From sequence record QB031382.1: DNA of 64,000 nt. One strand, given 5' to 3'. Below, piece by piece: positions 2,036 to 19,254 of the stretch. The first letter of the stretch is position 1, and every line of letters starts with the position of its first letter. This stretch comes from a phage. The notes beneath the pieces are model-generated. The model was not told the DNA's origin, searched no databases, and saw only the letters and a program-made list of their open reading frames with translations. A program made the position numbers and the translations under genes.

Positions 2036-2117
2036 CAAATATCTGTTGTAATTTACAGAAGGAGATGCTAAAATGGTGTCTCCTTTATGTTGTTCAAATA
2101 AAATCGGAGATTCCATA

Positions 2118-2483
2118 ATGGAACAAATGAACGATCAAGCGTCGGTTGCGATGAACGAGCAAGAACAACCTCAAGAATTTTTCTTAGGGTTAAGCAAAGA
2201 TCAGGTGTCTCTCCTGCTAGTGCTCTCTTCTTTCATGGGGAGACTTCAGGAGCTCACACAACAACCAGAGGCTGAACAATTATTTCAGGCTCTGCGCGAA
2301 GAAGAAAAATATCGTCGTTTGGATTATGCCTTAGGTTGGGTAGCTCAGCAACGAGATATGCTAATGGCCCTTTCTGGGACGACAAGTTTTGCAATGGGCC
2401 TGTTGGCTCAAGTGCAGGACAAATTAATTCAAGCAGGGTTTGCACACACAGCAAACACCAACGAAGAACAAGGAGACAAATAA
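2118..2483 (+). CDS. hypothetical protein
   Basis: Track ORF 2073..2483 trimmed to ATG 2118 preceded by GGAG. Confidence 0.5.
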   Translation: MEQMNDQASVAMNEQEQPQEFFLGLSKDQVSLLLVLSSFMGRLQELTQQPEAEQLFQALREEEKYRRLDYALGWVAQQRDMLMALSGTTSFAMGLLAQVQDKLIQAGFAHTANTNEEQGDK

Positions 2484-3709: not shown

Positions 3710-3724
3710 CATCTAGTTAACATA

Positions 3725-3754
3725 GCCCTGCCCGAAAGGGTGGGGCATTTTTGT
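3725..3754 (+). terminator. rho-independent terminator
   Basis: GCCCTGCCC-GAAA-GGGTGGGGC hairpin followed by ATTTTTGT. Confidence 0.75.
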
Positions 3755-3771
3755 ATAAGGAGATCTGAAAA

Positions 3772-4188
3772 ATGACATTAGAAGATATCATTGTTAAACC
3801 TGAGAACTATGACCAATACAATCTATCAACTCAATCTGTGGACCTTGGATGCGCCACTGCCAGTGCGTGGCTGGTTAACGGAAAAGAGCTGGATAAATGC
3901 TTAGAAGCTCACATGTCTATTAACAAGTTTCTGGATGAAAATACTCACTGGCTTGAGGGTGCAGGCGTATATGCTTCATGGTTGGAGAGTATGGGATTCG
4001 ACTACCAATCTGAAGAGGGGTGGTGGAGCTATTTAGCTATCTGTCCAGAGACGCTACAATGCTTCATGAAATATTCTGAAGATTTGGAGTACCGGGCGAT
4101 GGTTGATAGTGCTATTGCCCGTTATAGCCGTAAACCTTTTTCCCACGACATTAAAACTGTGGAAGAATTTGTTGAAGTTTTCTGTTGA
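3772..4188 (+). CDS. hypothetical protein
   Basis: Track ORF; RBS AAGGAG upstream. Confidence 0.55.
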   Translation: MTLEDIIVKPENYDQYNLSTQSVDLGCATASAWLVNGKELDKCLEAHMSINKFLDENTHWLEGAGVYASWLESMGFDYQSEEGWWSYLAICPETLQCFMKYSEDLEYRAMVDSAIARYSRKPFSHDIKTVEEFVEVFC

Positions 4189-4284
4189 CACAGATTGAAA
4201 GGTGTGCAATTATAACTTCATAGAACGGGAGGACGTGATGAACGAAGAAAACTGGGATGTATAACTAACAGGAGGCCACTGCCC

Positions 4285-4482
4285 ATGATTTATCGAATCC
4301 GTGTAAGAGAAGATGCACCAGGCTGTTACTTTGACTGGCGTGGGTGGTGGTTTCTCCACCCGATGGATGGACTCACAGATAGAATGCTGGATGCTGCCCT
4401 TTATACAGATACCGACATAGAATATAATCTCTATCTGAAGGACGGTATAGATAACGGTCTATTTGAAGCAATTCCTGTGTAA
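4285..4482 (+). CDS. hypothetical protein
   Basis: Track ORF; RBS AGGAGG upstream; TTGACA at 4185. Confidence 0.5.
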   Translation: MIYRIRVREDAPGCYFDWRGWWFLHPMDGLTDRMLDAALYTDTDIEYNLYLKDGIDNGLFEAIPV

Positions 4483-4550
4483 GAGGATGTGATAGCCATG
4501 TTTTATGATCTTCCTATAGCGCCACCACCTGTTGAACCCGGAGAACTAAG

Positions 4551-4976
4551 ATGACCTATGAAATGCCAAAACTGATTCGTGACGATGCCCAAAACGCTCA
4601 CACCATTATTATGGGCAAACGCATGGATATTATTTGTCATAAAGATTTCTGGGAAGGAAGTTACTTCACAGAGTATTTTGGTAAACTGGACAATGGTCTG
4701 CTGATCCAGTTCTACACCGATGCGGAAAACAACATTCACTGGGAGTTCGAAACTGAAGATATCCATAAACTTTTCACCTTCCTCGGTATTAAGGTTGAGG
4801 CCAAGTTTGAAGAAGGTGAGTGCGACGATTGTGGATTCTACGAGGTAACAGATTTCTATCTTCCGAGTGGTGAGAACCTTTACTATGAAAGCCACTTCGG
4901 TAACTCCAATATGCCACAGTGCTGGACTGAGTTTTTTGAAATTGTGGAAGAGGAGTTGGCATATCGTGATTATTGA
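4551..4976 (+). CDS. hypothetical protein, translationally coupled to macrodomain gene
   Basis: Track ORF; its TGA stop overlaps the GTG start of the next gene. Confidence 0.5.
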   Translation: MTYEMPKLIRDDAQNAHTIIMGKRMDIICHKDFWEGSYFTEYFGKLDNGLLIQFYTDAENNIHWEFETEDIHKLFTFLGIKVEAKFEEGECDDCGFYEVTDFYLPSGENLYYESHFGNSNMPQCWTEFFEIVEEELAYRDY

Positions 4977-5424
4977 TACTGTAGAGGGAGATTTAATCTC
5001 CCTTTTTAAGAGTGGTGCTGGTCACCTGATCCACGGTTGTAACTGCTTCCACACAATGGGCAAGGGTGTAGCAAAACAGATTGCCCGTGAGTTCCCTCAA
5101 GCATTGGCAGCTGACAAAACGACTACCTACGGTTGCCTAAGTAAGCTAGGTGCGTTCTCTCGGTGGGAGCACTTATCTCCGAAAGGTATTGTCTACGGAA
5201 TCAATCTATACACTCAGTTCTACCCAGGGCCTAATGCTGAATATTTCTCAATTCTGAAAGGCTTTGAACGAGTCAATGAGATATTCAAGGGATCTACTTT
5301 ACCATTCTACATCCCTAAGATTGGGTGCGGCATAGGCGGCTTGAAATGGGGACACGTAGAGGACGTTATTAACCTTGCCACTTTTGATATAGATATTATC
5401 GTGGTGGAGTACAAAGAGTGTTGA
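4966..5424 (+). CDS. macrodomain protein, TARG1/DarG-like ADP-ribose hydrolase candidate
   Basis: Track ORF 4867..5424 trimmed to GTG 4966 after GAGGAG; motifs EGDLISLF..HLIHGCNCFHTMGKGVAKQIAREFP and PKIGCGIGGLKWGHVEDVI resemble TARG1/OARD1-type macrodomains. Confidence 0.65.
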   Translation: MIIDTVEGDLISLFKSGAGHLIHGCNCFHTMGKGVAKQIAREFPQALAADKTTTYGCLSKLGAFSRWEHLSPKGIVYGINLYTQFYPGPNAEYFSILKGFERVNEIFKGSTLPFYIPKIGCGIGGLKWGHVEDVINLATFDIDIIVVEYKEC

Positions 5425-5449
5425 CAGCCGGATTTTAAGGTGGTATAGT
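5421..5449 (+). promoter_or_regulatory. sigma70-like promoter
   Basis: TTGACA 5421-5426, 17-bp spacer, TATAGT 5444-5449. Confidence 0.65.
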
Positions 5450-5477
5450 CACCACAACGATTAAGACAGGGGGCACT

Positions 5478-5678
5478 ATGGAGACTAAAATCTTAATTCT
5501 AGCTGTGATAGATACAACAGAAGGGGCTATATTTGAATCTGCAGGAGGGTATTTCTACCTGCCCTATGGAAAAAGAACTTCCGAGCCGAGTAAAGATTCA
5601 ATCCTCAAAGTGTTCCCGTGTTCTTTCTGGCTGGAGATTCTGGTAGAGGATTGCAAAGGATTGGAGAGACAATTATGA
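5478..5678 (+). CDS. hypothetical protein
   Basis: Track ORF downstream of promoter. Confidence 0.5.
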   Translation: METKILILAVIDTTEGAIFESAGGYFYLPYGKRTSEPSKDSILKVFPCSFWLEILVEDCKGLERQL

Positions 5679-5869
5679 GAAACAAGAAAGAGCTTTACTC
5701 TGGTGAGTGGATCAACGATCAACAGATCGGAGAGGTAACCTGCTTCCGATGTTTTACCAGGTACAATATTAAAACTGCACCAAAAAGTGTTCCAAAGACT
5801 GACGGTTATTACATAAAAGAACCTCATTGCCCAAAATGTAAATGCCGATTGTACTGGAGCAATCTGTAA
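5675..5869 (+). CDS. small zinc-ribbon protein
   Basis: Track ORF 5618..5869 trimmed to ATG 5675 after GGAGAG; CFRC and CPKCKC cysteine pairs. Confidence 0.5.
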   Translation: MRNKKELYSGEWINDQQIGEVTCFRCFTRYNIKTAPKSVPKTDGYYIKEPHCPKCKCRLYWSNL

Positions 5870-5873
5870 GAGG

Positions 5874-5901
5874 TTGACATCTGAAAACTGCAGTGTATAA
5901 T
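5874..5901 (+). promoter_or_regulatory. sigma70-like promoter
   Basis: TTGACA 5874-5879, 16-bp spacer, TATAAT 5896-5901. Confidence 0.65.
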
Positions 5902-5932
5902 ATACTCATAAACTAACAGAGAGCGATGTATT

Positions 5933-6124
5933 ATGGTAATTTTTAACCGGGATGGTATCATAGTTAGACAGCACCCGTTCCTTGAATACTATCAAATTGA
6001 GCAATGGTGCTACGGGGATTGCAGTCACTCCTATGGGCAAAGTTGGGGATATCGCACAGTTTTTGAATCAACAGACCTTGACAAAGTAAGACAGAAAGTT
6101 TTAGAACTTATTAACAACAAGTGA
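5933..6124 (+). CDS. hypothetical protein
   Basis: Track ORF downstream of promoter. Confidence 0.5.
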   Translation: MVIFNRDGIIVRQHPFLEYYQIEQWCYGDCSHSYGQSWGYRTVFESTDLDKVRQKVLELINNK

Positions 6125-6131
6125 GTATGAT

Positions 6132-6464
6132 ATGGTAACATTAGAAAGACGTAAAGCTATTGCCGCTACACTGGCAGACATCTTTTGGGATTGTAATTTA
6201 AAAGATACCCGATATTGCGGCGCATCTGTAGATGTATTATTCCCACGGCCCACCATTGTTGCAATGGGCAGTCTACTGGGCGTAGTTGCAGGTGCATGGG
6301 ATAAGGAAGGCGGTTTTTATATCTGGCAACCTGACTACGGTACCTGGAAAGAAGTAAGGGGTGCTGATGACTTTGGGCCTGCAGTTGCTAAGATGGATGG
6401 CTGGGAAATTTATGTTGGAAACGACATGAAGCTGAAAGGCGAGATTGTTTACTGGTTACCTTAA
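6132..6464 (+). CDS. hypothetical protein
   Basis: Track ORF. Confidence 0.45.
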   Translation: MVTLERRKAIAATLADIFWDCNLKDTRYCGASVDVLFPRPTIVAMGSLLGVVAGAWDKEGGFYIWQPDYGTWKEVRGADDFGPAVAKMDGWEIYVGNDMKLKGEIVYWLP

Positions 6465-6484
6465 GAAAGTGCAGGAGATAAAGT

Positions 6485-6730
6485 ATGAACAAAGGGTGGA
6501 CATTCGTAGACGGCGTTGAAAACATGCCTCTCGGAAAGTATATCGTAGCCATGGCTGACAAGAATGGCAATGTAGATTTCGGAGCTTGCGAGGTTGTTCT
6601 TGCAGGATCTGGTGGCTATGTGCACAAAACTGGGGTAATTAATGGTCAGTTCTACTTTGATCACAACCCTGTTGTAGCGTATATGGCTATGCCAGAGTTC
6701 AAGCTACCAAAGGAAGGTGCTGATGTTTAA
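6485..6730 (+). CDS. hypothetical protein
   Basis: Track ORF; RBS AGGAGA upstream. Confidence 0.55.
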   Translation: MNKGWTFVDGVENMPLGKYIVAMADKNGNVDFGACEVVLAGSGGYVHKTGVINGQFYFDHNPVVAYMAMPEFKLPKEGADV

Positions 6731-7288: not shown

Positions 7289-7543
7289 ATGGATTTCCTC
7301 CTTTTGATATTTTACCTGGCCGGATATTTTAAAATTCTTAGAAAATCAGAAAATGGATCGAAAACTAAAATGGATTTTTTCAAGACAGGCACGATAAGCT
7401 GTGCTAATCATCCTATCGTTCGCACCGTACTTCAAATCACCGTTCCAGATTTTCCGCACACACTCTCACCCTTCTACCAGAACTTTCCCAACTTACCTTC
7501 GGCCTTTTATGACAATAAGTTAATTATTATCAGTAAGTTTTGA
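7289..7543 (+). CDS. hypothetical small protein with hydrophobic N-terminus
   Basis: Track ORF 7247..7543 trimmed to ATG 7289 after AAGGAGGA; sits in repeat-rich AT-rich DNA so coding status is uncertain. Confidence 0.35.
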   Translation: MDFLLLIFYLAGYFKILRKSENGSKTKMDFFKTGTISCANHPIVRTVLQITVPDFPHTLSPFYQNFPNLPSAFYDNKLIIISKF

Positions 7544-7554
7544 TACATCTCTCT

Positions 7555-7745
7555 CAGTACTCGATCTGTTTTTCATTTCAAAGATTGGATTTTCTGAAAA
7601 TTTTTCTCGATAAATTTTTCGGTACTCGATCTGTTTTTCGTTTTCTGAATCGGATTTTCTTGAAATTGGTCCAGCACCAGATCTAAAATTTTTGGGAACG
7701 AAAGCGATTTTTCGTTTTCAGAAATGGATTTTTAAAATTTCTATA
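7555..7745. repeat. tandem direct repeats, about 65-bp unit, 2-3 copies
   Basis: GTACTCGATCTGTTTTTC exact at 7557-7574 and 7622-7639, each followed by GGATTTTCT-GAAA-type sequence; degenerate third copy near 7700. Confidence 0.7.
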
Positions 7746-7874
7746 TGGGAATATTTTATGAGGTATTATTTTATATAGAATTGTCACGGTAGGTAATTAG
7801 CATGCTAACTAAATTTATGAAATGCGAAAAGTTCTCATTTAGAATTTTGAATGATAATCATTCTCGTTTGCAGA

Positions 7875-9165: not shown

Positions 9166-9193
9166 TTGACACGCTGCAAAATTCAAGTAAACT
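9166..9193 (+). promoter_or_regulatory. sigma70-like promoter
   Basis: TTGACA 9166-9171, 16-bp spacer, TAAACT 9188-9193, preceded by A-tract. Confidence 0.5.
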
Positions 9194-9241
9194 AGACACA
9201 AAAGGCGGGAATGTTTCCCGCCAACACAAAGGAAAAAGATC

Positions 9242-9646
9242 ATGAATAAGAACGTACGCCGCATCATGAACGAGTTGGCAAACGATGAAAAAATTATTGA
9301 CATGCATTTGATCAACATTTGCCGCCGTTGTGTAACATATAACAACCGCGCCGCAAAAGCGCGTGAGATGAACGCAAAAGGCACCTTAAAGCCATTCCAG
9401 GTGGTGGTAAAGGCCATTAAAAATGTAACTAATACGGCAAACCAGGTACAGGGGAACACCAACGAGAGTACCAATATTGATCCGGCTTACATCATGAAAC
9501 GGATCCGGACCTGTAAGAACAAAGAGCAAGTGTATAATGTTATAGACTGGTTGGATTCTATGGGCGACGTGGTGTACAATAGATTCTCGGCAGCTATTGA
9601 GATCCAGCTTGACAGGTTGGACGGTAAAGTACTGAAAACTTATTAA
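9242..9646 (+). CDS. hypothetical protein
   Basis: Track ORF; RBS AAGGAAA upstream. Confidence 0.5.
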   Translation: MNKNVRRIMNELANDEKIIDMHLINICRRCVTYNNRAAKAREMNAKGTLKPFQVVVKAIKNVTNTANQVQGNTNESTNIDPAYIMKRIRTCKNKEQVYNVIDWLDSMGDVVYNRFSAAIEIQLDRLDGKVLKTY

Positions 9647-9694
9647 GTTTATTTTTAGATGGCCTTGACTCCAGGGCCATCAATAAAGTAAACT
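9645..9694 (+). promoter_or_regulatory. repeated promoter-hairpin module, copy 1
   Basis: AT-rich tract, then GATGGCC..GGCCATC inverted repeat containing TTGACT, then TAAACT; near-identical copies at 10266 and 13992. Confidence 0.55.
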
Positions 9695-9846
9695 AGTCTC
9701 AACTAAGCGAAAAAGGGGGCTTTAAGATGAGCACTACACGCCAATACACAAAGGTAACTATTATCGTTTGCGTTGTCGGTTACATCCTGGCGCAAATGTT
9801 AATGAGTAGCGCCAACAGTTTTGCAAAATTTTTCTTAAATTTTTAA

Positions 9847-9874
9847 TTGACAAGCTAACCCAAATCAGTATACT
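9847..9874 (+). promoter_or_regulatory. sigma70-like promoter
   Basis: TTGACA 9847-9852, 16-bp spacer, TATACT 9869-9874. Confidence 0.55.
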
Positions 9875-9925
9875 TAAACACGTAAACGGGAAAACTTCCC
9901 AGAACACACAAAAGGAGAAAACACC

Positions 9926-10267
9926 ATGACTACTATGACCGCCGCAGAAAAAGCTATGCAGATCGCCGCGCTGAAAAAACAGATCGCAGACCTTGAGAAC
10001 AAGATCGATAACTTTGAAATCGACGAGGACAAGTACGACGAAAACTATAATGAATGGCTAGACGAGATCCACGGCGAAATTATGATCGGTAACATTTCTT
10101 TTCTTCCGTCGCGTATCCTCAAGGAGTTAGATCCTATCGCTTACCGCTGCGGATTTAGCGACTACATCGACAGCCTGGGCATTGAGGACGACGAAGACTA
10201 TCAAGAATTGCAGACAGAGTTGGAAGAAATGAAAGAGGAGCTTTCAAAGCTGGAAGAAAACGAGTAA
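9926..10267 (+). CDS. hypothetical coiled-coil acidic protein
   Basis: Track ORF; RBS AAGGAGA upstream. Confidence 0.55.
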   Translation: MTTMTAAEKAMQIAALKKQIADLENKIDNFEIDEDKYDENYNEWLDEIHGEIMIGNISFLPSRILKELDPIAYRCGFSDYIDSLGIEDDEDYQELQTELEEMKEELSKLEENE

Positions 10268-10317
10268 AATTTATTTTTAGATGGCCTTGACCCCAGGGCC
10301 ATCAATAAAGTAAACTT
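10266..10317 (+). promoter_or_regulatory. repeated promoter-hairpin module, copy 2
   Basis: TTTATTTTTAGATGGCCTTGACCCCAGGGCCATCAATAAAGTAAACT, near-identical to copies 1 and 3. Confidence 0.55.
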
Positions 10318-10353
10318 TACACTGTTACACTGAACTAATGAGGAGTTAAAACT

Positions 10354-10599
10354 ATGGCAGCACTAATCACAAAATATTATGCGCCCACCAACACCAAAAG
10401 CGCCCGTATCATGGTAAAAGGTTTCGGACGTAAAAAGGTCTACACCTGGGACTATTCCCTAGATATGGAAGACAATTATACCAACGTAATGACTGATTTT
10501 ATTAATGATCTGAATAAACAGATCCTAACCGACTACAAAGTGACCGATATTGTTTACATAGGTGAAGGCGGGATCTGTTTTGTAGGCATTGTGAAATAG
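10354..10599 (+). CDS. hypothetical protein
   Basis: Track ORF; RBS GAGGAG upstream. Confidence 0.55.
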   Translation: MAALITKYYAPTNTKSARIMVKGFGRKKVYTWDYSLDMEDNYTNVMTDFINDLNKQILTDYKVTDIVYIGEGGICFVGIVK

Positions 10600-10675
10600 T
10601 TATTTTTTCGGTGGTCCTGGTTGCAGGGGCCATCTATAAAGATAATTTATTAACACCATGAAAGGAGAAAGTAAC

Positions 10676-11029
10676 ATGATCAGCGGGGCCAGTTTTATTA
10701 TCGGCGCTATTGCTACGGCTTTAATTGTAAACAAGATCCAGGATAAAAAGGAAAGAGGAAGTACCGCCCTTGCAGAATATCCATTTTGGACATTCAACGA
10801 TAACGAAGATTATATTATAAAGTATAAAAATAAAGAAGGCGACCAAGTAACACCGCGACCGATCCCGGCTTACAAAATGCAGGAAACACTATACCGCCTT
10901 GAGGCGGGCGGCGCAAAAATTGTTGACTTTTGGGGATACGACCACACAGATCAGGAAGTTATAAAGCGCCGTATCCGGGCTATTCAGGCCAATATTGAGG
11001 TTAGCAAGAGGGGAATATATGAAAATTAA
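10676..11029 (+). CDS. hypothetical membrane protein
   Basis: Track ORF 10658..11029 trimmed to ATG 10676 after AAGGAGA; N-terminal hydrophobic helix. Confidence 0.5.
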   Translation: MISGASFIIGAIATALIVNKIQDKKERGSTALAEYPFWTFNDNEDYIIKYKNKEGDQVTPRPIPAYKMQETLYRLEAGGAKIVDFWGYDHTDQEVIKRRIRAIQANIEVSKRGIYEN

Positions 11030-11216
11030 TTTCGAGAAAATTGTAAAGCGCCCTCATGATTCCGAAGAGTTGCCAGAACGCCGCCAGCGCAACAATAAGC
11101 TGAATAAGCCAAAAAGGTTTGGGAAGATCTGGCGTAATCATTATGATCGTAAATTGCCCGGCCTACTTTTGGAACGTGAACGACAGGCAGAACGCTACCG
11201 CCATAAAGACAAATAA
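11019..11216 (+). CDS. hypothetical basic protein
   Basis: Track ORF 10995..11216 trimmed to ATG 11019; overlaps previous gene end. Confidence 0.45.
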   Translation: MKINFEKIVKRPHDSEELPERRQRNNKLNKPKRFGKIWRNHYDRKLPGLLLERERQAERYRHKDK

Positions 11217-11224
11217 CAACCAAC

Positions 11225-11253
11225 GCCCCGCCATTGTGCGGGGCTTTTTATTT
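11225..11253 (+). terminator. rho-independent terminator
   Basis: GCCCCGC-CATTGT-GCGGGGC hairpin followed by TTTTTATTT. Confidence 0.8.
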
Positions 11254-11373
11254 CTATCCTACGAATAGCGCCCCTGGTTGGCCCTGTAAGCGCCAAAAAG
11301 GCCCCCACCTATGCAATCGCCCCTTTAACCTGAAAACATCGCCCAGGGCCGTCCTATGGCGTTAAAAATATCA

Positions 11374-11401
11374 TTGACATCGTCAACAGGTTAGCTATAC
11401 T
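11374..11401 (+). promoter_or_regulatory. sigma70-like promoter
   Basis: TTGACA 11374-11379, 16-bp spacer, TATACT 11396-11401. Confidence 0.6.
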
Positions 11402-11433
11402 AACCACATCAAAGAGAGAAAGGAGTAAACGCC

Positions 11434-11694
11434 ATGCGTAAATTAAAAAATTTTGATAAAGTTGATGTTATCCTGAATAATTTTTACTACTGCAACAATA
11501 AAGCTATCTGGTGGCGGGATAGTTCCACCGATAAAGTCAAAGCGCGCTTTCTTCAAGGGCACTGGCAAGGCCGCCCAGTGATTAAAATCATGGGGCAATT
11601 GGTAGCGTTTAAAAATTGCCGCCGCGTTGATGACGTTGAGGAGATTTTAAACATTTTGCGCCACAATAATTTAAAAAATAGTGTTGACAAGTAG
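11434..11694 (+). CDS. hypothetical protein
   Basis: Track ORF; RBS AAGGAG upstream. Confidence 0.55.
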   Translation: MRKLKNFDKVDVILNNFYYCNNKAIWWRDSSTDKVKARFLQGHWQGRPVIKIMGQLVAFKNCRRVDDVEEILNILRHNNLKNSVDK

Positions 11695-11711
11695 ATCTCA
11701 ATAAGTATAAT
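11684..11711 (+). promoter_or_regulatory. sigma70-like promoter
   Basis: TTGACA 11684-11689, 16-bp spacer, TATAAT 11706-11711. Confidence 0.65.
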
Positions 11712-11768
11712 TAAACACACAGGCGGGAAAACTTCCCGCCACTAACAAAGAAAACAGGAGAAAATATC

Positions 11769-12392
11769 ATGACCACCGTTAACATTACCACAGGTTACAA
11801 TTTATCTTTCGACGTGCTGACCGACGAACAAAAAGAAAAAGCCATTGAAATGGTCCGCGAAAGAGAAGAACGTAGCGGGGACGATTTTTTCGCAGAAAAT
11901 GTAATTGAATACTATAAAGAACAAGTTTTTCCAGAGTACGGCCTTGAGGATACCGAAGTACATTGGTCCGGCTTTTGGTGTCAAGGCGATGGCGCATCGA
12001 TCAGTGCTGAAAATGTAGACTTAGAAAAATTCTTGCGTAAAGTCAAGGCCCTGACCAAGTTCAGATCAATTCGTCACTTGTTCGGCACAATGCACGATGG
12101 CGAACTATCCGCCAGTGTTGAACGCGACAAGTACAGCCATTACAGCCATGAAAACACTATAAGCGGGTACATTGATACCACTTGGATAGATCTGACCGCC
12201 AAACAAGAAAACAAAGTGGAAGACCTGGAAGAATTGATCACCGAGACGGTACGGGAGCTATCCCGCAAGGTTTACGTAGACCTTGAGGAGGCCTATCTAG
12301 AACAGTTCACCGCAGAAAACCTGATCGGCCTTATTCAGGCCAATGATTGGCGGTTTGATGTCGATGAATATGGTGAGATGACTTTTTCATAA
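11769..12392 (+). CDS. hypothetical protein
   Basis: Track ORF; RBS AGGAGA upstream. Confidence 0.55.
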   Translation: MTTVNITTGYNLSFDVLTDEQKEKAIEMVREREERSGDDFFAENVIEYYKEQVFPEYGLEDTEVHWSGFWCQGDGASISAENVDLEKFLRKVKALTKFRSIRHLFGTMHDGELSASVERDKYSHYSHENTISGYIDTTWIDLTAKQENKVEDLEELITETVRELSRKVYVDLEEAYLEQFTAENLIGLIQANDWRFDVDEYGEMTFS

Positions 12393-12485
12393 ATAAAGTG
12401 TTGCAATAACCTAAAAACCTGCTATATTAAAACTCAAGGGGGGCAAGACATTTGCCCGCCAACACAAAACAAAGAGGATAACATC

Positions 12486-12866
12486 ATGAAAAATACTACT
12501 AAGGCTATTGACACCGTTATGTTTAACCTGGTTACACTCCGTGAAGATATGAAAGATCTTCCGCGTGAAACAGTGTGCGACCATATCGAAAACTATCGCA
12601 AACTAATCAAAGAGTTGCCATTAAAACGAGATCAGTACGCGGCTAACGCTATGCTAAACGCCATGATCAAAAAGATGATCCAGTGTGATCTAACCCTGGC
12701 CTATGATTATGCAGGCGGTCGTTTTGCAGTATACAATCAGCCCGTGCCTGGTATGAGCACCACCGAAGAATTGCACGCGCTCAATCTAAAACAGGACGTG
12801 TGGGATAGTATGCCTCGCGTGGTGGTATGGGTAGAAAGCGGGAAGATTTACGGCGATAATTTTTAA
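12486..12866 (+). CDS. hypothetical protein
   Basis: Track ORF; RBS AGAGGA upstream. Confidence 0.55.
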   Translation: MKNTTKAIDTVMFNLVTLREDMKDLPRETVCDHIENYRKLIKELPLKRDQYAANAMLNAMIKKMIQCDLTLAYDYAGGRFAVYNQPVPGMSTTEELHALNLKQDVWDSMPRVVVWVESGKIYGDNF

Positions 12867-12876
12867 TCAGGTAGCA

Positions 12877-12902
12877 GGCGGCATAATTGCCGCCTTATTG
12901 TT
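12877..12902 (+). terminator. rho-independent terminator
   Basis: GGCGGC-ATAATT-GCCGCC hairpin followed by TTATTGTT. Confidence 0.65.
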
Positions 12903-12930
12903 GATCAGAACTGCAAAAGGGGTACATAGA

Positions 12931-13302
12931 ATGGAATTTATTATTTTGGCCGTATTGGTTGCCTTATTTAACGCCTGGATCGCTGGCAAGATGGGAAGAT
13001 CCGCCTTTTTATGGTTTATTATATCTATTTTCCTGGGGGTGGTTGCAACTATTGTACTGGTTATCCTTGCAATTGTTGACAAGGGGAATAATAGAAAGGG
13101 TAAAGTATTTTCAGACCTGTACGACGCTCAAACGTTTGTCAACGCCTATTACAGCGATCTTCCAGTCTCCCTACGTTGCAGCCTTGCACAACAGGTTTTT
13201 GATGAGGCTAAAACCAGAGATCACGCCCATGAGATTTGTTTAACTGAGGCGGATCGCTTATTTGAGAGGAATAGAAAATATGTGGGCCAGCCGTTTAAAT
13301 AA
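12931..13302 (+). CDS. hypothetical membrane protein
   Basis: Track ORF 12898..13302 trimmed to ATG 12931 after AAAGGGG; two hydrophobic helices. Confidence 0.5.
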   Translation: MEFIILAVLVALFNAWIAGKMGRSAFLWFIISIFLGVVATIVLVILAIVDKGNNRKGKVFSDLYDAQTFVNAYYSDLPVSLRCSLAQQVFDEAKTRDHAHEICLTEADRLFERNRKYVGQPFK

Positions 13303-13521
13303 TACCACGTTAATTAATCCATTTAGTGAAGATTTGAGGCCAGCCGCCTGGCGGAATGGATTCAATAACGAAAAATTTACTTTTAGGCCTGATCTTGAGG
13401 AATTTTATAACAATGGATCGAACAACGACAGAAATAATTTTTCTCGTAATGTGCGTGGCGATAATACTCCTGGGGGCCATTGTAAACCACGTCACTGCTA
13501 ACAGGAGGAAAGGGGGAGACG

Positions 13522-13641
13522 ATGACAACCAAGGATAAGCCCAGCACCGACAAGGCGCGCCGCGTTATGGTATGGCTTGAGATTATCGCCCTTGAAATAT
13601 TGTTAGGCGTAGGGATGTATTTTATCGCCGTACGTACCTGA
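13522..13641 (+). CDS. small hydrophobic protein, 39 aa, absent from track
   Basis: ATG 13522 preceded by AGGAGGAAAGGGGGAG; hand translation MTTKDKPSTDKARRVMVWLEIIALEILLGVGMYFIAVRT. Confidence 0.45.
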   Translation: MTTKDKPSTDKARRVMVWLEIIALEILLGVGMYFIAVRT

Positions 13642-13645
13642 TAAC

Positions 13646-13677
13646 GGCCCCCGATCCCTGGGGGCCTGACTTTTTTC
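13646..13677 (+). terminator. rho-independent terminator
   Basis: GGCCCCC-loop-GGGGGCC hairpin followed by TTTTTTC. Confidence 0.65.
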
Positions 13678-13705
13678 AAAAAAAAAAATTTTTTCTTCCG
13701 GGGTG

Positions 13706-13734
13706 TTGCAATCCGGTCCGGAATATGGATAATA
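13706..13734 (+). promoter_or_regulatory. promoter, family 2
   Basis: TTGCAA then conserved AATATGGATAATA; same architecture at 14524-14552. Confidence 0.45.
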
Positions 13735-13792
13735 ACAATCAACGGGGAGACACTCCCCACCACACAGACAAAGTTCCAAAAGGAGAAACAAA

Positions 13793-13993
13793 ATGAGCAA
13801 CAATATCCGCGTTATTAACTTCAAAAAAGAAGAAAAAATAGCTGTGCTGGTTGATGGTCAAGAAATATTCAAGGGGTATTACGAAGATCATCAGGCGGCG
13901 ATCAGTATTACCCGCGTAATTGGTTACCATAATTTTTACCCTCAAGGCGCTGAGGCAGCAGTAAAACGAATTAAGGAGATTGTAGGCCTGTAA
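13793..13993 (+). CDS. hypothetical protein
   Basis: Track ORF; RBS AAGGAGA upstream. Confidence 0.55.
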   Translation: MSNNIRVINFKKEEKIAVLVDGQEIFKGYYEDHQAAISITRVIGYHNFYPQGAEAAVKRIKEIVGL

Positions 13994-14043
13994 AATTTAT
14001 TTTTAGATGGCCTTGACCCCAGGGCCATCAAATAAAGTAAATT
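13992..14043 (+). promoter_or_regulatory. repeated promoter-hairpin module, copy 3
   Basis: TTTATTTTTAGATGGCCTTGACCCCAGGGCCATCAAATAAAGTAAAT. Confidence 0.55.
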
Positions 14044-14085
14044 TAAAACCTGTTAAAATAATCAGTGCAAAAAGGAGAAATGATC

Positions 14086-14385
14086 ATGTTTATACCCGCC
14101 AATGATCTTTATTTCTTTGATGGTCAGATCGTAGACGGCGTGGAAGTTGAGATCGCTGGATGTAAAGGCGGCCAGGTAATGATCTTCCGCAATAGTGCCT
14201 TTAACGATCATTTTATTACAATGACTGTGGAAGTTAAAAAGCTGGATGATAAGAAAACACTCATTGACTATTCCGTGAAAGATCATCCAGACTACCACAT
14301 GATCTATGGTGATTTGTGCATTGTTGACCGTGACAAGGTGGGCGGCATTGTGATCGCTATTGTGAACGATGTTTTCTCTGAATAA
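14086..14385 (+). CDS. hypothetical protein
   Basis: Track ORF 14065..14385 trimmed to ATG 14086, best spaced from AAGGAG. Confidence 0.5.
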   Translation: MFIPANDLYFFDGQIVDGVEVEIAGCKGGQVMIFRNSAFNDHFITMTVEVKKLDDKKTLIDYSVKDHPDYHMIYGDLCIVDRDKVGGIVIAIVNDVFSE

Positions 14386-14523
14386 TTCCGGCAAATGATG
14401 CAAAATAAGGCCCATGGCAGGGCCTGCAGCGATATAATCACACAAAGGCTATGCAGTTGCATGGCCTTTTTATTTTAGCGCTACAGCGGCCCCCAAGGCG
14501 TTTAAAAAATTTTTAAAAAGTAC

Positions 14524-14552
14524 TTGCATCAAGTCCGACAATATGGATAATA
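14524..14552 (+). promoter_or_regulatory. promoter, family 2
   Basis: TTGCAT then AATATGGATAATA. Confidence 0.45.
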
Positions 14553-14610
14553 GGACTTATCAGGGGGGGGCGGCCCCCAATCATTAACCGGATAGATGGG
14601 AGTTAAAATC

Positions 14611-14895
14611 ATGGCTATTGTTACCGTGGGCGATGTAGTAGAAATGGAAGCAAAATACTTAAAAGCGGGTATGCATATCCTACGCAACGATCTTGAACTA
14701 GTCCTGACAATGGTCGACTATAATCCCGGTCAGGATTATCCAAGCATCGACTACTTTTTCCAGTATGTTGACGAAGAATTAAAAGAAGATGACGCTTATC
14801 GTGGTGAATTTTGCAATTTCTTTTGCCCTGATGAGGTTGTAAAAGTTATCTATCAACCTGGCGTACCTTTCCCGTTGCACGCCATCAATAAATAA
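14611..14895 (+). CDS. hypothetical protein
   Basis: Track ORF 14596..14895 trimmed to ATG 14611 after GGGAG. Confidence 0.5.
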   Translation: MAIVTVGDVVEMEAKYLKAGMHILRNDLELVLTMVDYNPGQDYPSIDYFFQYVDEELKEDDAYRGEFCNFFCPDEVVKVIYQPGVPFPLHAINK

Positions 14896-15020
14896 GCCTG
14901 GCGGGGCCGAAAAAGGCCCCTCCTGAAACTATGAAAAAATAAAGATAGGTGAATCATCATGATGGAACAAATTAAACGCGCTGAGGCTATTAATGGCAAT
15001 GATGCCGCCAACATGACAGA

Positions 15021-15284
15021 ATGAAAAACATCATTTACAGATTGACAAAACGCAACATCATGATCGCCACCGTGATCGCTTGCCTTTTCGCTTTCGTGAG
15101 TAACGCAACGTTTAACGCCGTGGGCCGGGTGGTGTTTAATGCTGGCAGTGTTTCAACAGCTAACACAATAATCGATTGTTTGCAACTTTTCTTTTATGTT
15201 GCCTTTCGTTTAAAAATAGCTTGCAAGGTAGACCGTTTTGATTTACCTTTTATTTGTGGCGGCGTGATCGCTATCGTATGCTAA
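15021..15284 (+). CDS. hypothetical membrane protein
   Basis: Track ORF; hydrophobic segments. Confidence 0.45.
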   Translation: MKNIIYRLTKRNIMIATVIACLFAFVSNATFNAVGRVVFNAGSVSTANTIIDCLQLFFYVAFRLKIACKVDRFDLPFICGGVIAIVC

Positions 15285-15356
15285 CAGAGGATCAGAAGAA
15301 AAGTGTACGACATAGGGCGGGGCAATAAGGCAACGCCCATTAATGAGGGTGGAATC

Positions 15357-15461
15357 ATGTTAGAAAAAATTTTCACGGTTGTAGTAGTTGGCATGGCATT
15401 ATCGGTTGGAGTGGTTGCAACTATGGCTAACATGATCCTATCTTCCCACGGTATCGGGTAA
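15357..15461 (+). CDS. small hydrophobic protein, 34 aa, absent from track
   Basis: ATG 15357 after GAGGGTGG; hand translation MLEKIFTVVVVGMALSVGVVATMANMILSSHGIG. Confidence 0.4.
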   Translation: MLEKIFTVVVVGMALSVGVVATMANMILSSHGIG

Positions 15462-15471
15462 GGTGAAACAA

Positions 15472-15630
15472 ATGATCACGAACAAAACAGGAAAAACGGA
15501 ATTTTTACGCGGCTTGCAAATAGGTAAGCCTGAGATCTGGTATTGCACTAAAACACCACGTGACGAAATGAAAGATTTTACCGCCACGCTGAAGCGGGTA
15601 AAGATATCTATCACGCAGAAAAAGCCTTGA
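15472..15630 (+). CDS. small protein, 52 aa, absent from track
   Basis: ATG 15472 after AAGGTGA; hand-translated open frame to TGA 15628-15630. Confidence 0.4.
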   Translation: MITNKTGKTEFLRGLQIGKPEIWYCTKTPRDEMKDFTATLKRVKISITQKKP

Positions 15631-15776
15631 TAGTGGTGGAAGGTGAGATCCCTCAAGCCGTTGTTATAGTTGAGCGTACAGCATAGTTTAATCTATACCG
15701 TACGCCCCATTAACTAACAAAGCATAAGCAGGCGGCGGTGACCGCCTTGAACGCAACAGAAAGAGAATAGAAAAGC

Positions 15777-15911
15777 ATGAGAAAGGTAATTATCACCATA
15801 GGGATCGTGGCGGCAATGTTGGCGATCTTTCCCTTTATGGTTAGGTATGTGCTGATCAGTATTGTCCTGATAGTCAGTGGTCTATTGGAAACGGTTGGCA
15901 ACTGGTTTTAA
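15777..15911 (+). CDS. small hydrophobic protein, 44 aa, absent from track
   Basis: ATG 15777 after AAAGAGAA; followed by terminator hairpin. Confidence 0.4.
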   Translation: MRKVIITIGIVAAMLAIFPFMVRYVLISIVLIVSGLLETVGNWF

Positions 15912-15919
15912 GATAATAA

Positions 15920-15948
15920 ACAGGGCTTGCAATGGTCCTGTTTTTTGT
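15920..15948 (+). terminator. rho-independent terminator
   Basis: ACAGG-loop-CCTGT hairpin followed by TTTTTTGTT. Confidence 0.5.
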
Positions 15949-15982
15949 TATACTTATCTCACGGGTGGCACCTGGCGACGGG

Positions 15983-16011
15983 GGGAGACAATCACCGGGG
16001 GTGCCCGTTAT
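15983..16011. repeat. 29-bp inverted-repeat arm B, partner at 7875..7903
   Basis: GGGAGACAATCACCGGGGGTGCCCGTTAT, exact reverse complement of arm A. Confidence 0.85.
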
Positions 16012-17364: not shown

Positions 17365-17642
17365 ATGCAAACGAATGTCATGGCGCGACGGAGTCGCGAC
17401 ATAATATAAAAGCAGTAACCATCACCCCCGTGATAGTTTATCTGCAAACTATTGATCAGATCATAGTTGCCTTAGATTTAGTTAATCATGACATAATAAG
17501 CAAGGCAACTATAGATCTGATAATAGTTGCCCTGCTTTTATATTATGTCATATATTATTAACCTGTTAATTGTCAGCTTATTGGCTGTTAGCTTGTCAAT
17601 TGTTAACTTGTTAATTGTTATCATGCAAACGAATGTCATGGC
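17365..17642. repeat. composite repeat element: 20-bp direct repeats flanking an 18-bp inverted-repeat pair
   Basis: ATGCAAACGAATGTCATGGC at 17365-17384 and 17623-17642; GACATAATATAAAAGCAG 17398-17415 is the reverse complement of 17532-17549; interior has repeated GGCAACTAT/ATAGTTGCC and a TGATCAGATCA palindrome. Confidence 0.8.
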
Positions 17643-17765: not shown

Positions 17766-19254
17766 ATAATAACAGTCGTTATTGTATCGAAAGTGTATAA
17801 GGTGTCAGATTATGGCATATTGTGTGACATTGTGTCAGACAAGTTTTTCTCCTCTTTGTCAAGTGCTGCATGTAAAATTTACAAACTGGTATGGTAGCAT
17901 TTTTGCGGCCCTGTTTACATTCAGGAGTGTATGTATAACCCTTGTTGTGTGGGCGTTTAGACGTCTGGACGGTCAGAAGTCTGCAGGTTAATATCTAATC
18001 TATTGGTCGCTAACTATATCCCCACAAATAATAAGAAATGCAATTGTTATATGCGTAAACAGTAACTCATGTTATCAATCCCTGTATGTATCGCCAGTGG
18101 TGCGCATAATGGGTATTATGTTAAATTGCCCGTAATGATAACGATTCTCACAATGATAGGTATTCTCATTCACCCGCCCAGGATAGGTTGCAAATGTTGT
18201 GCCACTGTGTGAACGGCCTCGCCTATTAATTTGCCTCACTGCCCCGATATTTGAGAATTATTATAAGAATGAGAAGTATTCCCATTTCGTCCGCCTGGCA
18301 GCACTCCTGTAGGACAAGCACAAAATCGTGGCATAACTGTACCTGTTCAGATATTTCTGGCTGACTCTTCAGGTCTGTGTGGGAAAAGCCAACCTCTCCG
18401 GCGGCGGGGAGTGGGTCAATTAAAAAATTTACGTGGTGTATGAAGCGCTCTTCAGGTAAGGCAGGTATTATGGGATGAATCACTCTTCAGGTGATGATAT
18501 TTGTAGGTGTGATATTTGCTGGAAAGCCAGATATGACGGGACTCCCGGCGGGGCAGGGGTAGTACAGACAGGGAAAATGTGGAGAATGTGGTGGGTAAAT
18601 TGATCAAGCAGGTAGAGTATGGAATATGTTACAGGTATGTTAAATATGGAGGTAAGATATTTGTAAGATTTGTGTGTAAAATCAAAGACTTAAGTAGTGT
18701 TGTGGTATTTTCTATAAATAATTCAAGTTTAATAGGGAATATTTGCCTCTATCCACTTTGTATGGTAACTATATTCTAATTGAATTGGTTTACAAGTGTA
18801 TATAAAGTATACAAATTAAAGATACAAGAAACCCCCCTCCCCCTTCGGCTACCATTCACCTTTTCCTCTGACTGGTACTTAAACACTTATTCAGACTCTT
18901 CAGGTTATCACTCATATATCATATGGCAGTGACTGGTGTCCTCCGGCCCCTCTTTCGTCACCCGTCCGCTTCGCCATGCTAATGCCATAGCTAACTGTTC
19001 GGTTGTTCACCCTGTTCACTCAGGTGTATCTCCATACCCCTTCAAACCGAAGAGAACAGAAAACCCGAATTACTCGGTAAAAGAAAAGAGAAGAACTTAA
19101 TTTTATCAGGATAGGCAAGAATGTCAAGGCATGACTGCTCACTAAACAAGCAAACAGTCATGTGTGGGAGGTAAGTGATTGTGGTGGTAGGAAATTTAGT
19201 TGAAAGATGTGTTATAGGTGCTTCCAGCACTTTAGCCTGGCAGCTAATTGTGTG

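Follow-up and report, generated by a model that had tools for sequence, protein, structure and literature searches.

A repeated intercistronic hairpin in the early region of an rV5-like phage: resemblance to T7 RNase III sites and possible promoter function

Stem-loops between phage early genes

In T7, the early polycistronic mRNAs transcribed by host polymerase contain intercistronic RNase III processing sites (R0.3, R0.5, R1, R1.1, and R1.3), in which about 20 bp are divided into two stacked helices by an internal loop. RNase III substrates are typically two helical turns long, a "distal box" of UA/UG has been described as optimal for binding, and internal loops confine cleavage to one strand, leaving a protective 3′ hairpin (PMC1540722). 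A G-C pair beside the cut is of a kind reported to slow catalysis (PMC1540722).

A second class of intercistronic stem-loop is found in the T4-like phages RB49, phi1, PST, and nt-1, where it is known as the promoter-early stem-loop, or PeSL (PMC2839356, PMC4122927). In RB49 and phi1, a stop codon in AT-rich DNA is followed by a sigma-70 promoter, a stem-loop, and then a Shine-Dalgarno (SD) sequence and ATG; the stem-loop may overlap the -35 and has G-T pairs, and lacZ fusions have demonstrated both promoter and stem-loop activities (PMC2839356). Here we describe a repeated element of a Vequintavirus, an rV5/FV3-like E. coli phage, that shares features with both classes.

Copies of the element and their transcription units

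The window analyzed is a 64,000-nt stretch (QB031382.1) of this phage, a 137-kb myovirus unrelated to T7. Four copies of a 50-base element, or module, lie between small early genes, all on the gene strand, and every copy starts at the stop codon of the upstream gene:

9646..9694, + strand: M1; upstream stop codon 9644-9646
10268..10316, + strand: M2; upstream stop codon 10265-10267
13994..14043, + strand: M3; upstream stop codon 13991-13993
10598..10647, + strand: M4, the diverged copy; stop codon TAG 10597-10599

A sequence-only reading had proposed at least three near-identical copies, and this was borne out: the 24-nt core GATGGCCTTGACYCCAGGGCCATC has exactly three matches, all on the + strand (9658-9681, 10280-10303, and 14006-14029), with none expected in shuffled sequence. 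The repeat of its 50-nt string was likewise real, but the string begins 3-4 nt downstream of the positions given for it, at 9648, 10270, and 13996. M3 has one extra A (CAAATAAAG), and TAAATT replaces TAAACT. A diverged copy had been suspected near 10598; a covariance model of the module located it at 10595-10650 (E about 4e-12) and returned no fifth copy in the 64-kb window.

Each of the modules is internal to a transcription unit: a promoter-proximal gene precedes it, the next gene follows, and no terminator intervenes. The features that define these units are as follows:

9166..9222, + strand: consensus sigma-70 promoter TTGACA-16-TAAACT with 5′-UTR hairpin (9204-9222)
9847..9899, + strand: consensus promoter TTGACA-16-TATACT with 5′-UTR hairpin GGGAAAACTTCCC; repeat family D4
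10354..10599, + strand: 81-aa ORFan gene (phrog_3199, function unknown), with M2 and M4 on either side
13706..13762, + strand: promoter-like site TTGCAA-16-GATAAT with 5′-UTR hairpin (13740-13762)

The first promoter, the positional counterpart of P194 in Table S4 of the rV5 paper, drives gene 9242-9646, and its transcript must enter M1. The second heads a unit comprising 9926-10267, M2, 10354-10599, M4, 10658-11029, 11019-11216, and a terminator at 11225-11244. The promoter-like site drives a unit made up of 13793-13993, M3, 14086-14385, and a terminator at 14444-14469.

Fold and conservation of the hairpin

All four copies fold into the same 20-bp interrupted hairpin. The whole unit is one extended structure in which a UA/AAU internal loop separates lower and upper stems of 10 bp each, capped by a tetraloop:

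M1, + strand: lower stem 9646-9655/9685-9694; upper stem 9658-9667/9672-9681; internal loop 9656-9657 (UA) and 9682-9684 (AAU); terminal loop 9668-9671 (ACUC)
M2, + strand: lower stem 10268-10277/10307-10316; upper stem 10280-10289/10294-10303; internal loop 10278-10279 and 10304-10306; terminal loop 10290-10293 (ACCC)
M3, + strand: lower stem 13994-14003/14034-14043; upper stem 14006-14015/14020-14029; internal loop 14004-14005 and 14030-14033 (AAAU, the extra A in this genome); terminal loop 14016-14019
M4, + strand: lower stem 10598-10607/10638-10647; upper stem 10610-10619/10624-10634, with G10627 bulged; internal loop 10608-10609 (UC) and 10635-10637 (UAU); terminal loop 10620-10623 (GUUG)

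Folding energies are -23.3 to -25.1 kcal/mol for M1-M3 (z -5.8 to -7.3) and -18.6 kcal/mol for M4, z ranging from -3.8 to -7.3 across all four copies. Despite a G+C content of about 33%, the copies place 7th, 13th, and 20th among the roughly 25,600 windows of 60 nt in the 64 kb; the antisense strands of M1 and M2 reach just -17 and -21 kcal/mol. The 7-bp inverted repeat noted earlier is present, but as the core of a longer 10-bp stem, GAUGGCCUUG/CAGGGCCAUC, with one U.G pair; the C/T difference among copies falls within its loop, ACYC. An "AT-rich upstream tract" AGUUUAUUUU and a "-10" AAAGUAAACU had been treated as separate parts, a division that does not hold: they are mutually complementary and form the second 10-bp stem.

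A stable G/C-rich stem right after a stop codon could suggest an intrinsic (rho-independent) terminator for the upstream gene's transcript, a function to which we give almost no credence. Neither helix is followed by a U-tract on either strand, the upper stem being followed by AAUAAAG, and a consensus scan and two annotated records, which call canonical terminators at 11225, 12876, 13646, and 14444, never call the module.

In relatives, each intact Vequintavirus locus yields exactly four matches to the module model, always on the gene strand, and M4 is retained in 21 of 21 genomes. Across 45 distinct sequences from 21 genomes, in an alignment that was itself fitted to the covariance model, 97.9% of pair cells are paired, vs. 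39-54% with partners slid. Compensatory changes, mostly one old split between M4 and M1-M3 plus changes among M4 orthologues, altered four lower-stem pairs on both sides (44 cells); upper-stem changes all proceed via G.U. There are 117 G.U/U.G cells and 11 A.C/C.A cells, an excess which indicates that pairing is maintained on the sense strand and points to RNA. The module is less diverse (nucleotide diversity 0.064) than the coding DNA on either side (0.088-0.092) or the 25 nt just downstream of it (0.149). M4, which lacks a -35, retains the structure, with compensatory changes both relative to M1-M3 and among its orthologues. Together, these data point to a hairpin that is evolutionarily maintained as sense-strand RNA.

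The loops behave differently from one another. In M4 the loop drifts freely, varying at three positions, while in M1-M3 the A and C of TTGAC hardly ever change and the next base takes all four values. Pairing offers no explanation for this constancy; a real -35 or a loop-binding protein would.

The sequence-only reading had placed a palindromic operator (GATGGCC/GGCCATC) over the -35 of a promoter and suggested co-regulation of the genes by one factor; in such a model, a dimeric early protein would bind the operator of a sigma-70 promoter and co-regulate the downstream genes. The perfect 7-bp inverted arms around TTGAC in M1-M3 and the near-identity of these three copies fit such an arrangement. 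However, the arms lie 17 bp apart center to center, a distance that would not put two half-sites on one helix face, and the inverted symmetry runs across all 50 nt, "-10" included. Where the arms vary, they do so by transitions on one side that preserve G.U pairing in a single strand, and M4 is conserved and covarying even though its arms are asymmetric (GGTGGTC vs. GGCCATC) and it has no -35. The palindrome is only the upper part of a structure whose two helices also take in the "UP tract" and the "-10", and the excess of G.U over A.C is an RNA pattern rather than one of symmetric protein half-sites. We regard the operator as decidedly improbable, and co-regulation by one palindrome-binding factor is unlikely.

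Comparison with T7 RNase III sites

The module resembles the T7 RNase III sites, especially R1, with covariance-model matches that are reciprocal. A model built solely from the five T7 early sites ranks M1, M2, M4, and M3 1st, 2nd, 5th, and 10th in the 64-kb window. Scores are 20.3 bits for M1 (E 0.0023), 17.9 bits for M2 (E 0.015), and 11.1 bits for M3, compared with a maximum of 17.1 bits in 93 kb of unrelated phage DNA; the E-values are rough and modest (0.002 to 2.7), and because M1-M3 are mutually non-independent the comparison rests on effectively two sequences. In the reverse search, of T7 820-6560, the best match of the module model is R1, in an alignment that spans both helices and the same UA/AAU internal loop.

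Predicted folds are also alike. In T7 R1.1 and R0.5, an internal loop separates a lower stem of 9-10 bp from a 10-bp upper stem, which has G.U pairs and ends in a loop of 4-5 nt; their energies, -22.9 to -24.2 kcal/mol, are close to those of the module. R1.3 has a similar energy (-24.8 kcal/mol), but its upper stem extends to 13 bp and its lower stem is short. Promoters adjoin T7 sites too. Several differences should be noted. The lower stem of the module is almost pure A/U, its internal loop measures just 2 x 3 nt, against 4 x 5-6 nt in R1.1 and R0.5, its copies are far more similar to one another than the T7 sites are, and the two sets of sequences cannot be aligned by BLAST. Moreover, the T7 sites are RNase III processing sites, whereas cleavage of the module is a prediction. 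The T7 cleavage coordinates we used, 3138 and 5887, are attributed to Dunn and Studier (1983). In the R1.1 cleavage register, the cut-adjacent pair of the module would be G-C, which counts against RNase III. Below the loop-closing pair, the module has U-A and then U.G, in the same order as R1.1, thus matching the "distal box" UA/UG (PMC1540722).

We consider it about an even chance that, in the early polycistronic mRNAs of rV5-like phages, the module acts as a structured RNA signal between cistrons, serving RNase III-type processing or stability. RNA polymerase would start at a strong upstream promoter, transcribe the first gene, and read through the module, whose 50-nt RNA would fold into the A/U-rich lower stem, UA/AAU loop, G/C-rich upper stem, and tetraloop. 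The most likely effector would be host RNase III, with putative cuts in the 3′ strand of the internal loop (following 9684 in M1, 10306 in M2, 14033 in M3, and 10637 in M4). Such a cut would give the upstream cistron a protective, presumably stabilizing 3′ hairpin and part it from the downstream cistron, a scheme that would parallel processing at R0.3 to R1.3. A search of the literature found no transcriptome study of the rV5-like phage group.

The hairpin could instead bind a phage or host RNA-binding protein other than RNase III, for example one that regulates translation, acts in antitermination, or blocks RNase E or exonucleases, and its likeness to T7 sites would then be purely architectural. 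The conserved sense-strand structure would suit such a protein, as would sequence conservation in M1-M3 well beyond the needs of pairing, including the loop ACNC and the U.G pair (preserved in 44 of the 45 distinct sequences), and flanking genes without known function leave room for a partner. Nevertheless, no candidate protein was identified, the downstream SD, 15-40 nt away, is not sequestered by the hairpin, and the reciprocal best matches with T7 sites would have to be coincidence. We judge this reading improbable.

Promoter sequences and comparison with PeSLs

Three copies also contain promoter-like hexamers, of the form TTGACN-18-TAAACT/TAAATT and matching the sigma-70 consensus at 9 of 12 positions:

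9665-9670 and 9689-9694, + strand: TTGACT and TAAACT of M1
10287-10292 and 10311-10316, + strand: TTGACC and TAAACT of M2
14013-14018 and 14038-14043, + strand: TTGACC and TAAATT of M3; spacer 19 (18 in most relatives)

M4 has no TTGAC and no -35 at usable spacing. Sigma-70 sites matching at 9/12 or better number 55 in 13 kb, vs. 28.8 expected, so that such a match alone is at noise level. The earlier claim of a promoter module is therefore upheld in part: the hexamers of M1-M3, the T-rich UP-element-like tract, and the position agree with it, while the strength of the match and the -35-less M4 do not. Promoter activity is possible, judging from sequence. Three of the four copies could be read as moderate sigma-70 promoters and may restart transcription for the next gene, so that the module possibly doubles as a promoter.

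Like PeSLs, the module is a repeated intergenic cassette in AT-rich DNA that starts at the upstream stop codon and belongs to a plastic early region. It has a sigma-70-like -35/-10 and a stem-loop that contains G-T pairs and may overlap the -35, and it precedes a small ORFan with its SD and ATG. In contrast, it numbers four per genome rather than about 50, its promoter match is weaker than the consensus-like promoters of PeSLs, and its 50-nt two-helix stem-loop engulfs the whole promoter, whereas PeSLs have a short GGGG/CCCC stem. One module copy lacks a promoter, the phage is not T4-like, and the promoter activity, terminator activity, and mini-circles associated with PeSLs would be hypothetical for the module.

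A PeSL-type cassette might nonetheless have the promoter as its main function. The downstream ORFan would then be expressed by sigma-70 RNA polymerase initiating 6-8 nt past TAAACT, the stem-loop would do no more than attenuate or insulate transcription from upstream, and RNase III would be uninvolved. TTGACN (5/6), the 18-nt spacer, and TAAACT/TAAATT with the key A2 and T6 are consistent with this, and the upstream AATTTATTTTT fits the distal UP-element pattern. From 8.4 to 14.5 kb, where consensus promoters are placed right after the previous stop codon, each non-overlapping gene is preceded by a consensus promoter or a module, with similar gaps. The almost invariant loop A and C of M1-M3, set against the variable M4 loop, agree as well; the record of phage Gotham annotates two of three copies as PhagePromoter predictions, and PeSLs of RB49 and phi1 share the module's anatomy (PMC2839356). 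On the other hand, the hexamer match is at noise level in this DNA, the module is absent from the promoter table of the rV5 paper, M4 is conserved without a usable -35, the window's M3 has a 19-nt spacer, and natural variants (TTTACT, TTGATT, and TTGATAAC) occur. With no U-tract after the hairpin, efficient termination is unexpected, and terminator predictors made no call. The sense-strand G.U signature needs transcription through the element, for which a promoter alone is insufficient. This remains a serious but rather unlikely account; the hairpin probably acts mainly at the RNA level, with the promoter-like appearance of three copies perhaps a secondary matter.

Recombination and loss

In phage 241Ecol014PP, the 81-aa gene (10354..10599) is precisely absent and a chimeric module remains, its left half M2 and its right half M4. 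This is one natural module-to-module deletion, as reported for PeSL cassettes, in which inter-copy recombination deletes the intervening gene and leaves a chimeric cassette; it also favors a PeSL-type reading. Because of their near-identity, the copies also provide homology for recombination events in which intervening small genes are removed or moved.

Alternatively, the module might have no regulatory function itself, being a small palindrome that is selfish or mobile, or simply a recombination linker. The ORFans flanked by near-identical copies are unrelated, two copies are joined in one deletion, and public assemblies break at copies. Copies can also decay, as in the M1 of Gotham (a 5-nt deletion) and the M3 of C7 (a replaced 3′ arm), and rV5_ev146, presumably a laboratory-evolved rV5 derivative from its name, is without M1 and M3. 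Correia repeat elements of Neisseria are likewise small palindromic repeats: their transcripts form hairpins that RNase III cleaves, and they can provide promoter hexamers as well. However, they are bacterial and mobile, measure 100-150 bp, and occur in hundreds of copies with target-site duplications. Across about 120 genomes, the module is confined to four copies whose orthologous positions are fixed, with none found elsewhere in those genomes or in E. coli and no target-site duplications visible. We find a mobile element or linker highly improbable, as compensatory changes and a diversity below that of coding DNA indicate selection on the structure.

Genomic Setting and Copies of the Module

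The 4.9 kb around the module, a repeated 50-nt intergenic element, matches 123 records, all of them rV5/FV3-like Vequintavirus and several deposited as 'Campylobacter' phages; Escherichia phage VB-EcoM-WM is 97.6% identical over this region. The module lies in a run of small + strand genes whose functions are unknown, except for a homologue of T7 gp1.1. The relevant features are:

9646-9694, + strand: module copy M1
10268-10316, + strand: module copy M2
10354-10599: gene for an 81-aa ORFan, between M2 and M4
10598-10647, + strand: diverged module copy M4
11019-11216, + strand: T7 protein 1.1-like gene
13994-14043, + strand: module copy M3

The T7 protein 1.1-like gene is the last in the operon that holds M2 and M4, and its 65-aa product matches Pfam PF08200 (bacteriophage T7 protein 1.1) above the curated cut-off (E 2.6e-11).

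The sequence-only reading had described three near-identical copies and a diverged fourth near 10598, and both observations hold. The 24-nt core GATGGCCTTGACYCCAGGGCCATC occurs exactly three times, on the + strand only, where none is expected by chance; a repeat finder returned a 61-nt family with three copies, and a covariance model recovered the diverged copy. The string quoted in that reading is present, but begins 3-4 nt further downstream than reported. M3 carries one additional A, and TAAATT. In BLAST searches, a single copy matched 121 phage records, all Vequintavirus, at about three detectable places per record, and complete E. coli genomes held no match to the module. The copies begin with the final base or bases of the preceding stop codon, and their 3′ edge lies 10-45 nt before the next start codon.

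Some public assemblies start or end inside a module copy, among them MG065666.1, which starts within one (L020, 1-26), and the 4,641-bp record OR845160.1. This suggests that assemblies of these phages are broken or misplaced by the repeat.

A Two-Helix Hairpin on the Sense Strand

The AT-rich tract, the palindrome and the -10-like hexamer had been listed as separate features of the module; folding shows instead that they are parts of one structure. In the lower helix AGUUUAUUUU pairs with AAAGUAAACU, so that the supposed AT-rich tract is the partner of the supposed -10, and in the upper helix GAUGGCCUUG pairs with CAGGGCCAUC. A UA/AAU internal loop separates the two helices, and ACYC closes the hairpin. 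The sense strands of M1-M3 fold at -23.3 to -25.1 kcal/mol (z -5.8 to -7.3), and M4 adopts the same architecture. The antisense strand reaches only -17 and -21 kcal/mol, because the U.G pair in each helix becomes A.C on that strand. When 60-nt windows are ranked by stability, the copies fall within the top 20 of about 25,600 in the 64 kb. A scan of 7-17 kb against Rfam 15 gave nothing near threshold, the best overlapping match scoring 24 bits against a gathering threshold of 55 (E 1.5).

Comparison with the same region from 20 further Vequintavirus genomes supports this structure. With the covariance model, each intact locus gave four sites, all of them on the gene strand, and the window contained no further one. 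Among 45 distinct sequences, in an alignment fitted to the model, 97.9% of pair cells hold standard pairs, as against 39-54% with partners shifted by 1-3 columns. Two-sided changes occur at four lower-stem pairs (G-C/A-U/G.U; U-A/C-G; U-A/A-U/G.U/G-C; A-U/U-A), much of this covariation being the old split between M4 and M1-M3, and changes in the upper stem are all one-sided, via G.U. Cells with G.U outnumber those with A.C by 117 to 11, corresponding to nine pair positions versus two; pairing has therefore been preserved on the sense strand, which is what would be expected of an RNA. Nucleotide diversity is lower in the module (0.064) than in flanking coding DNA (0.088-0.092), and far lower than in the 25 nt downstream (0.149).

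The palindrome over the -35 had been interpreted as a shared operator. Symmetry, however, spans all 50 nt rather than the palindrome, the G.U pattern is strand-specific, and the palindrome arms are asymmetric in M4, where 2/7 positions differ by transitions that keep G.U pairing; the module is probably not an operator. Nor is it an intrinsic terminator: no U-tract lies 3′ of either helix on either strand, and a scan and the annotators of two records call four canonical terminators nearby and never the module. The rV5 genome paper gives no terminator at its position.

Beyond Vequintavirus, an IMG/VR search anchored on the 113-aa protein of a neighbouring gene recovered a single close relative, along with seven distant loci. 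In none of the seven did the module model detect a copy; some have repeated promoters of their own. One distant phage encoding a homologue of the 113-aa protein (L005) carries a promoter unit repeated at 10491-10528, 12183-12220 and 17918-17955, in which GGTAT-N6-ATACC, an inverted repeat, is flanked by a -35-like CTTGTG and an extended -10, TGTATAAT; here too, a repeated early promoter contains a hairpin. The AT-rich arms, with any filler, were also searched for in viral, metagenome and genome collections. Most matches outside Vequintavirus were unstructured chance matches in AT-rich DNA, and six were real hairpins, in unrelated AT-rich uncultured phage contigs (L029, 901-946; L032, 20-70, minus strand; L037, 823-872; L047, 1019-1073; L051; L066). 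These six have the exact module arms TTTATTTTTAG...CAATAAAGTAAA, with different, perfectly paired upper stems that lack TTGAC. They too begin just 3′ of a stop codon and end shortly upstream of the next gene, which in L029 is HNH endonuclease-like. Either homology or convergence may relate them to the module.

Similarity to T7 RNase III Sites

RNase III substrates span about two helical turns, and internal loops limit cleavage to one strand, leaving a protective 3′ hairpin (PMC1540722). The module matches the roughly 20-bp hairpin of T7-type sites with 10 + 10 bp in all four copies. Its UA/AAU internal loop lies exactly 10 bp below the tetraloop, as compared with about 10-11 bp below the hairpin loop in T7-type sites, and at least 11 bp are required between cut and tetraloop (PMC1540722). 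When folded, the T7 early RNase III sites R1.1 and R0.5 have a lower stem of 9-10 bp, an internal loop, an upper stem of 10 bp that contains G.U pairs and a loop of 4-5 nt (-22.9 to -24.2 kcal/mol). R1.3 is similar in energy (-24.8 kcal/mol), but combines a 13-bp upper stem with a lower stem that is only short. The internal loop of R1 is UA/AAU, identical to that of the module, whereas that of R1.1 is larger. A UA/UG 'distal box' is optimal for RNase III (PMC1540722), and the other sequence determinant of T7-type sites is a proximal box free of inhibitory G-C pairs. Directly under the loop-closing pair, M1-M3 have U-A then U.G, as in R1.1; in M4, U-A is followed by C-G, an order shared with R0.5 and R1.3.

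The five sites R0.3, R0.5, R1, R1.1 and R1.3 were the sole input to a model that was searched against the whole window with filters off (128 kb searched). M1 ranked first (20.3 bits, E 0.0023, E-values in this comparison being rough), M2 second (17.9 bits), M4 fifth and M3 tenth, all as full-length + strand matches. Unrelated phage DNA (93 kb) gave a background maximum of 17.1 bits, the next score being 13.6. In the reverse search, the best match of the module model in T7 820-6560 was R1, with both helices aligned (16.9 bits, at a similarly rough E of 0.06).

T7 RNA is reportedly cleaved at GAAU^AGG in R1 and at UUAU^GAU in R1.1 (Dunn and Studier 1983). By analogy with these two sites, the module is predicted to be cut after the AAU of its internal loop. 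In the R1.1 register that we infer, a G-C pair would adjoin the predicted cut. Such a pair is reported to be a catalytic antideterminant that slows catalysis in a model substrate (PMC1540722), which argues the other way, against RNase III cleavage at that site.

Possible Promoter Activity of the Module

Whether M1-M3 are active as promoters is a matter of roughly even odds. A sigma-70 promoter has its -35 and -10 separated by 16-18 nt. The hexamers proposed in the sequence-only reading are indeed present in M1-M3, as TTGACN-18-TAAACT/TAAATT below a T-rich upstream tract. Modules also take the position that consensus promoters have at other genes: from 8.4 to 14.5 kb, each non-overlapping gene is preceded by either a module or TTGACA-16/17-TAnnnT, right after the previous stop codon. 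Of the TTGAC bases that lie in the loop, A and C hardly vary, whereas the base that follows them can be any of the four; the M4 loop drifts at three positions. PhagePromoter predicted two copies in one record. However, a 9/12 match with an 18-nt spacer is at noise level and does not rise above shuffled background (55 sites of at least 9/12 found versus 28.8 expected), and the spacer of M3 in the window is 19 nt. M4 has no -35 at usable spacing, yet it is conserved; natural variants exist with TTTACT, TTGATT and TTGATAAC; and the stringent promoter list of the rV5 genome paper omits the module. A literature search for rV5-group transcriptomes or mapped transcription starts found nothing usable, and it yielded no data on transcript ends.

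Just 3′ of M3, TGTTAAAAT (14049-14060) resembles an extended -10. In phage C7 (L017, 8571-8606), the 3′ arm of M3 is replaced by GTGGTAAAATAAC, which fits TggTAaAAtA, a motif proposed in the rV5 paper as a late promoter.

Similarity to PeSLs and Recombination Between Copies

Promoter-early stem-loops (PeSLs) of phages RB49 and phi1 begin at a stop codon in AT-rich DNA and combine a sigma-70 promoter with a stem-loop that contains G-T pairs and may overlap the -35; ORFans in plastic regions lie downstream of them, and the cassettes recombine among themselves (PMC2839356). The module matches them in placement, being intergenic in an AT-rich, plastic early region and reaching from a stop codon to the SD/ATG of a small ORFan. 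It also matches in its stem-loop, whose upper stem shares bases with the -35 and whose two helices contain one U.G pair each. Where PeSLs have a strong sigma-70-like promoter, M1-M3 have the 9/12 hexamers, a match at noise level, and M4 has none. PeSLs occur in many copies in a T4-like phage, unlike the module with its four copies per genome in a phage of the Vequintavirinae.

Recombination is matched by one case. Phage 241Ecol014PP lacks the 81-aa gene that M2 and M4 flank; a chimeric junction remains, its left part from M2 and its right part from M4, and the crossover falls within GGCCATC/ATAAAG. This junction was found in only 1/105 matching records, and is therefore a recent deletion between two copies; module copies demonstrably serve as recombination homology. 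No other indel of the region is bounded by modules. Neither the rV5_ev146 deletions (window 9236-9738 and 11165-15989) nor the MiataMamis insertion (about 11380-11395) has a module at its ends, and M3 does not border alternative downstream genes, the downstream gene being homologous (88.7%) and only about 25 nt of 5′ UTR differing. Copies can also decay or vanish: M1 of Gotham has a 5-nt deletion, M3 of C7 lacks its 3′ arm, and rV5_ev146 lacks both M1 and M3.

Function and Significance

The best-supported role for the module is at the RNA level, as an intercistronic hairpin in read-through early transcripts. RNase III is its most likely effector, a step that we infer at about even odds, and would give T7-like processing and 3′-end protection. 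The three copies M1-M3 may also fire as promoters, which would make the element a PeSL-like composite. Unlikely is a dual-level reading in which the same 50 nt would be a sigma-70 promoter as DNA and an RNase III site in read-through RNA, as well as a portable linker for swapping early ORFans. RNase III would then cut within about 10-20 nt of the promoter's own transcript start, so that transcripts from upstream would end in a protective hairpin near the site where new ones begin. As part of this improbable reading, the element would be a cross between T7 R-sites and T4-type PeSLs, occurring in a third lineage of phages. We found no published description of it, and it belongs to known kinds rather than to a new one.

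Phages related to rV5 are widely isolated and used in E. coli biocontrol and therapy, and their early expression has so far been described only through promoter and terminator predictions. If the hairpins are RNase III sites, T7-like mRNA processing would extend to a large myovirus, the differing expression levels of adjacent early ORFans would be explained, and four positions would be marked for loss or exchange of small genes, which is useful in genome engineering. The element also carries a warning for annotation: promoter predictors call it a promoter, while the comparative signal is that of RNA structure.

Other Features of the Window

Several further elements were noted:

9166-9222, 9847-9899, 11684-11740, 12401-12460 and 13706-13762: second repeated module
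7540-7780: AT-rich stretch without an obvious gene, with three 65-74-nt direct repeats TCGGTACTCGATCTGTTTTTCGTTTT...GGATTTTC and several GATC sites
7688-7725: A/T-rich hairpin of 17 pairs
15661-15720 and 17491-17550, minus strand: very stable long hairpins (-26.5 and -26.4 kcal/mol; 14-15 perfect pairs)
about 59196-59455: strongly structured G/C-rich repeats upstream of the tRNA cluster
61642-62454: seven tRNA genes (Arg, Tyr, Ser, one odd 4-base anticodon call, Thr, Met, Pro)

The two very stable long hairpins are not terminators for the + strand genes. The stretch at 7540-7780 looks like an iteron or origin-like region, and may be the 'non-coding' box of the rV5 genome map. In the second repeated module, the consensus-like sigma-70 promoter TTGACA/TTGCAA-16-TAnnnT lies about 10 nt before a G/C-rich hairpin, GGGAAAACTTCCC or a variant of it; among PeSLs, this module corresponds to the subclass whose stem-loop follows the -10. 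Its hairpin would be at the 5′ end of the transcript, and may stabilize the mRNA.
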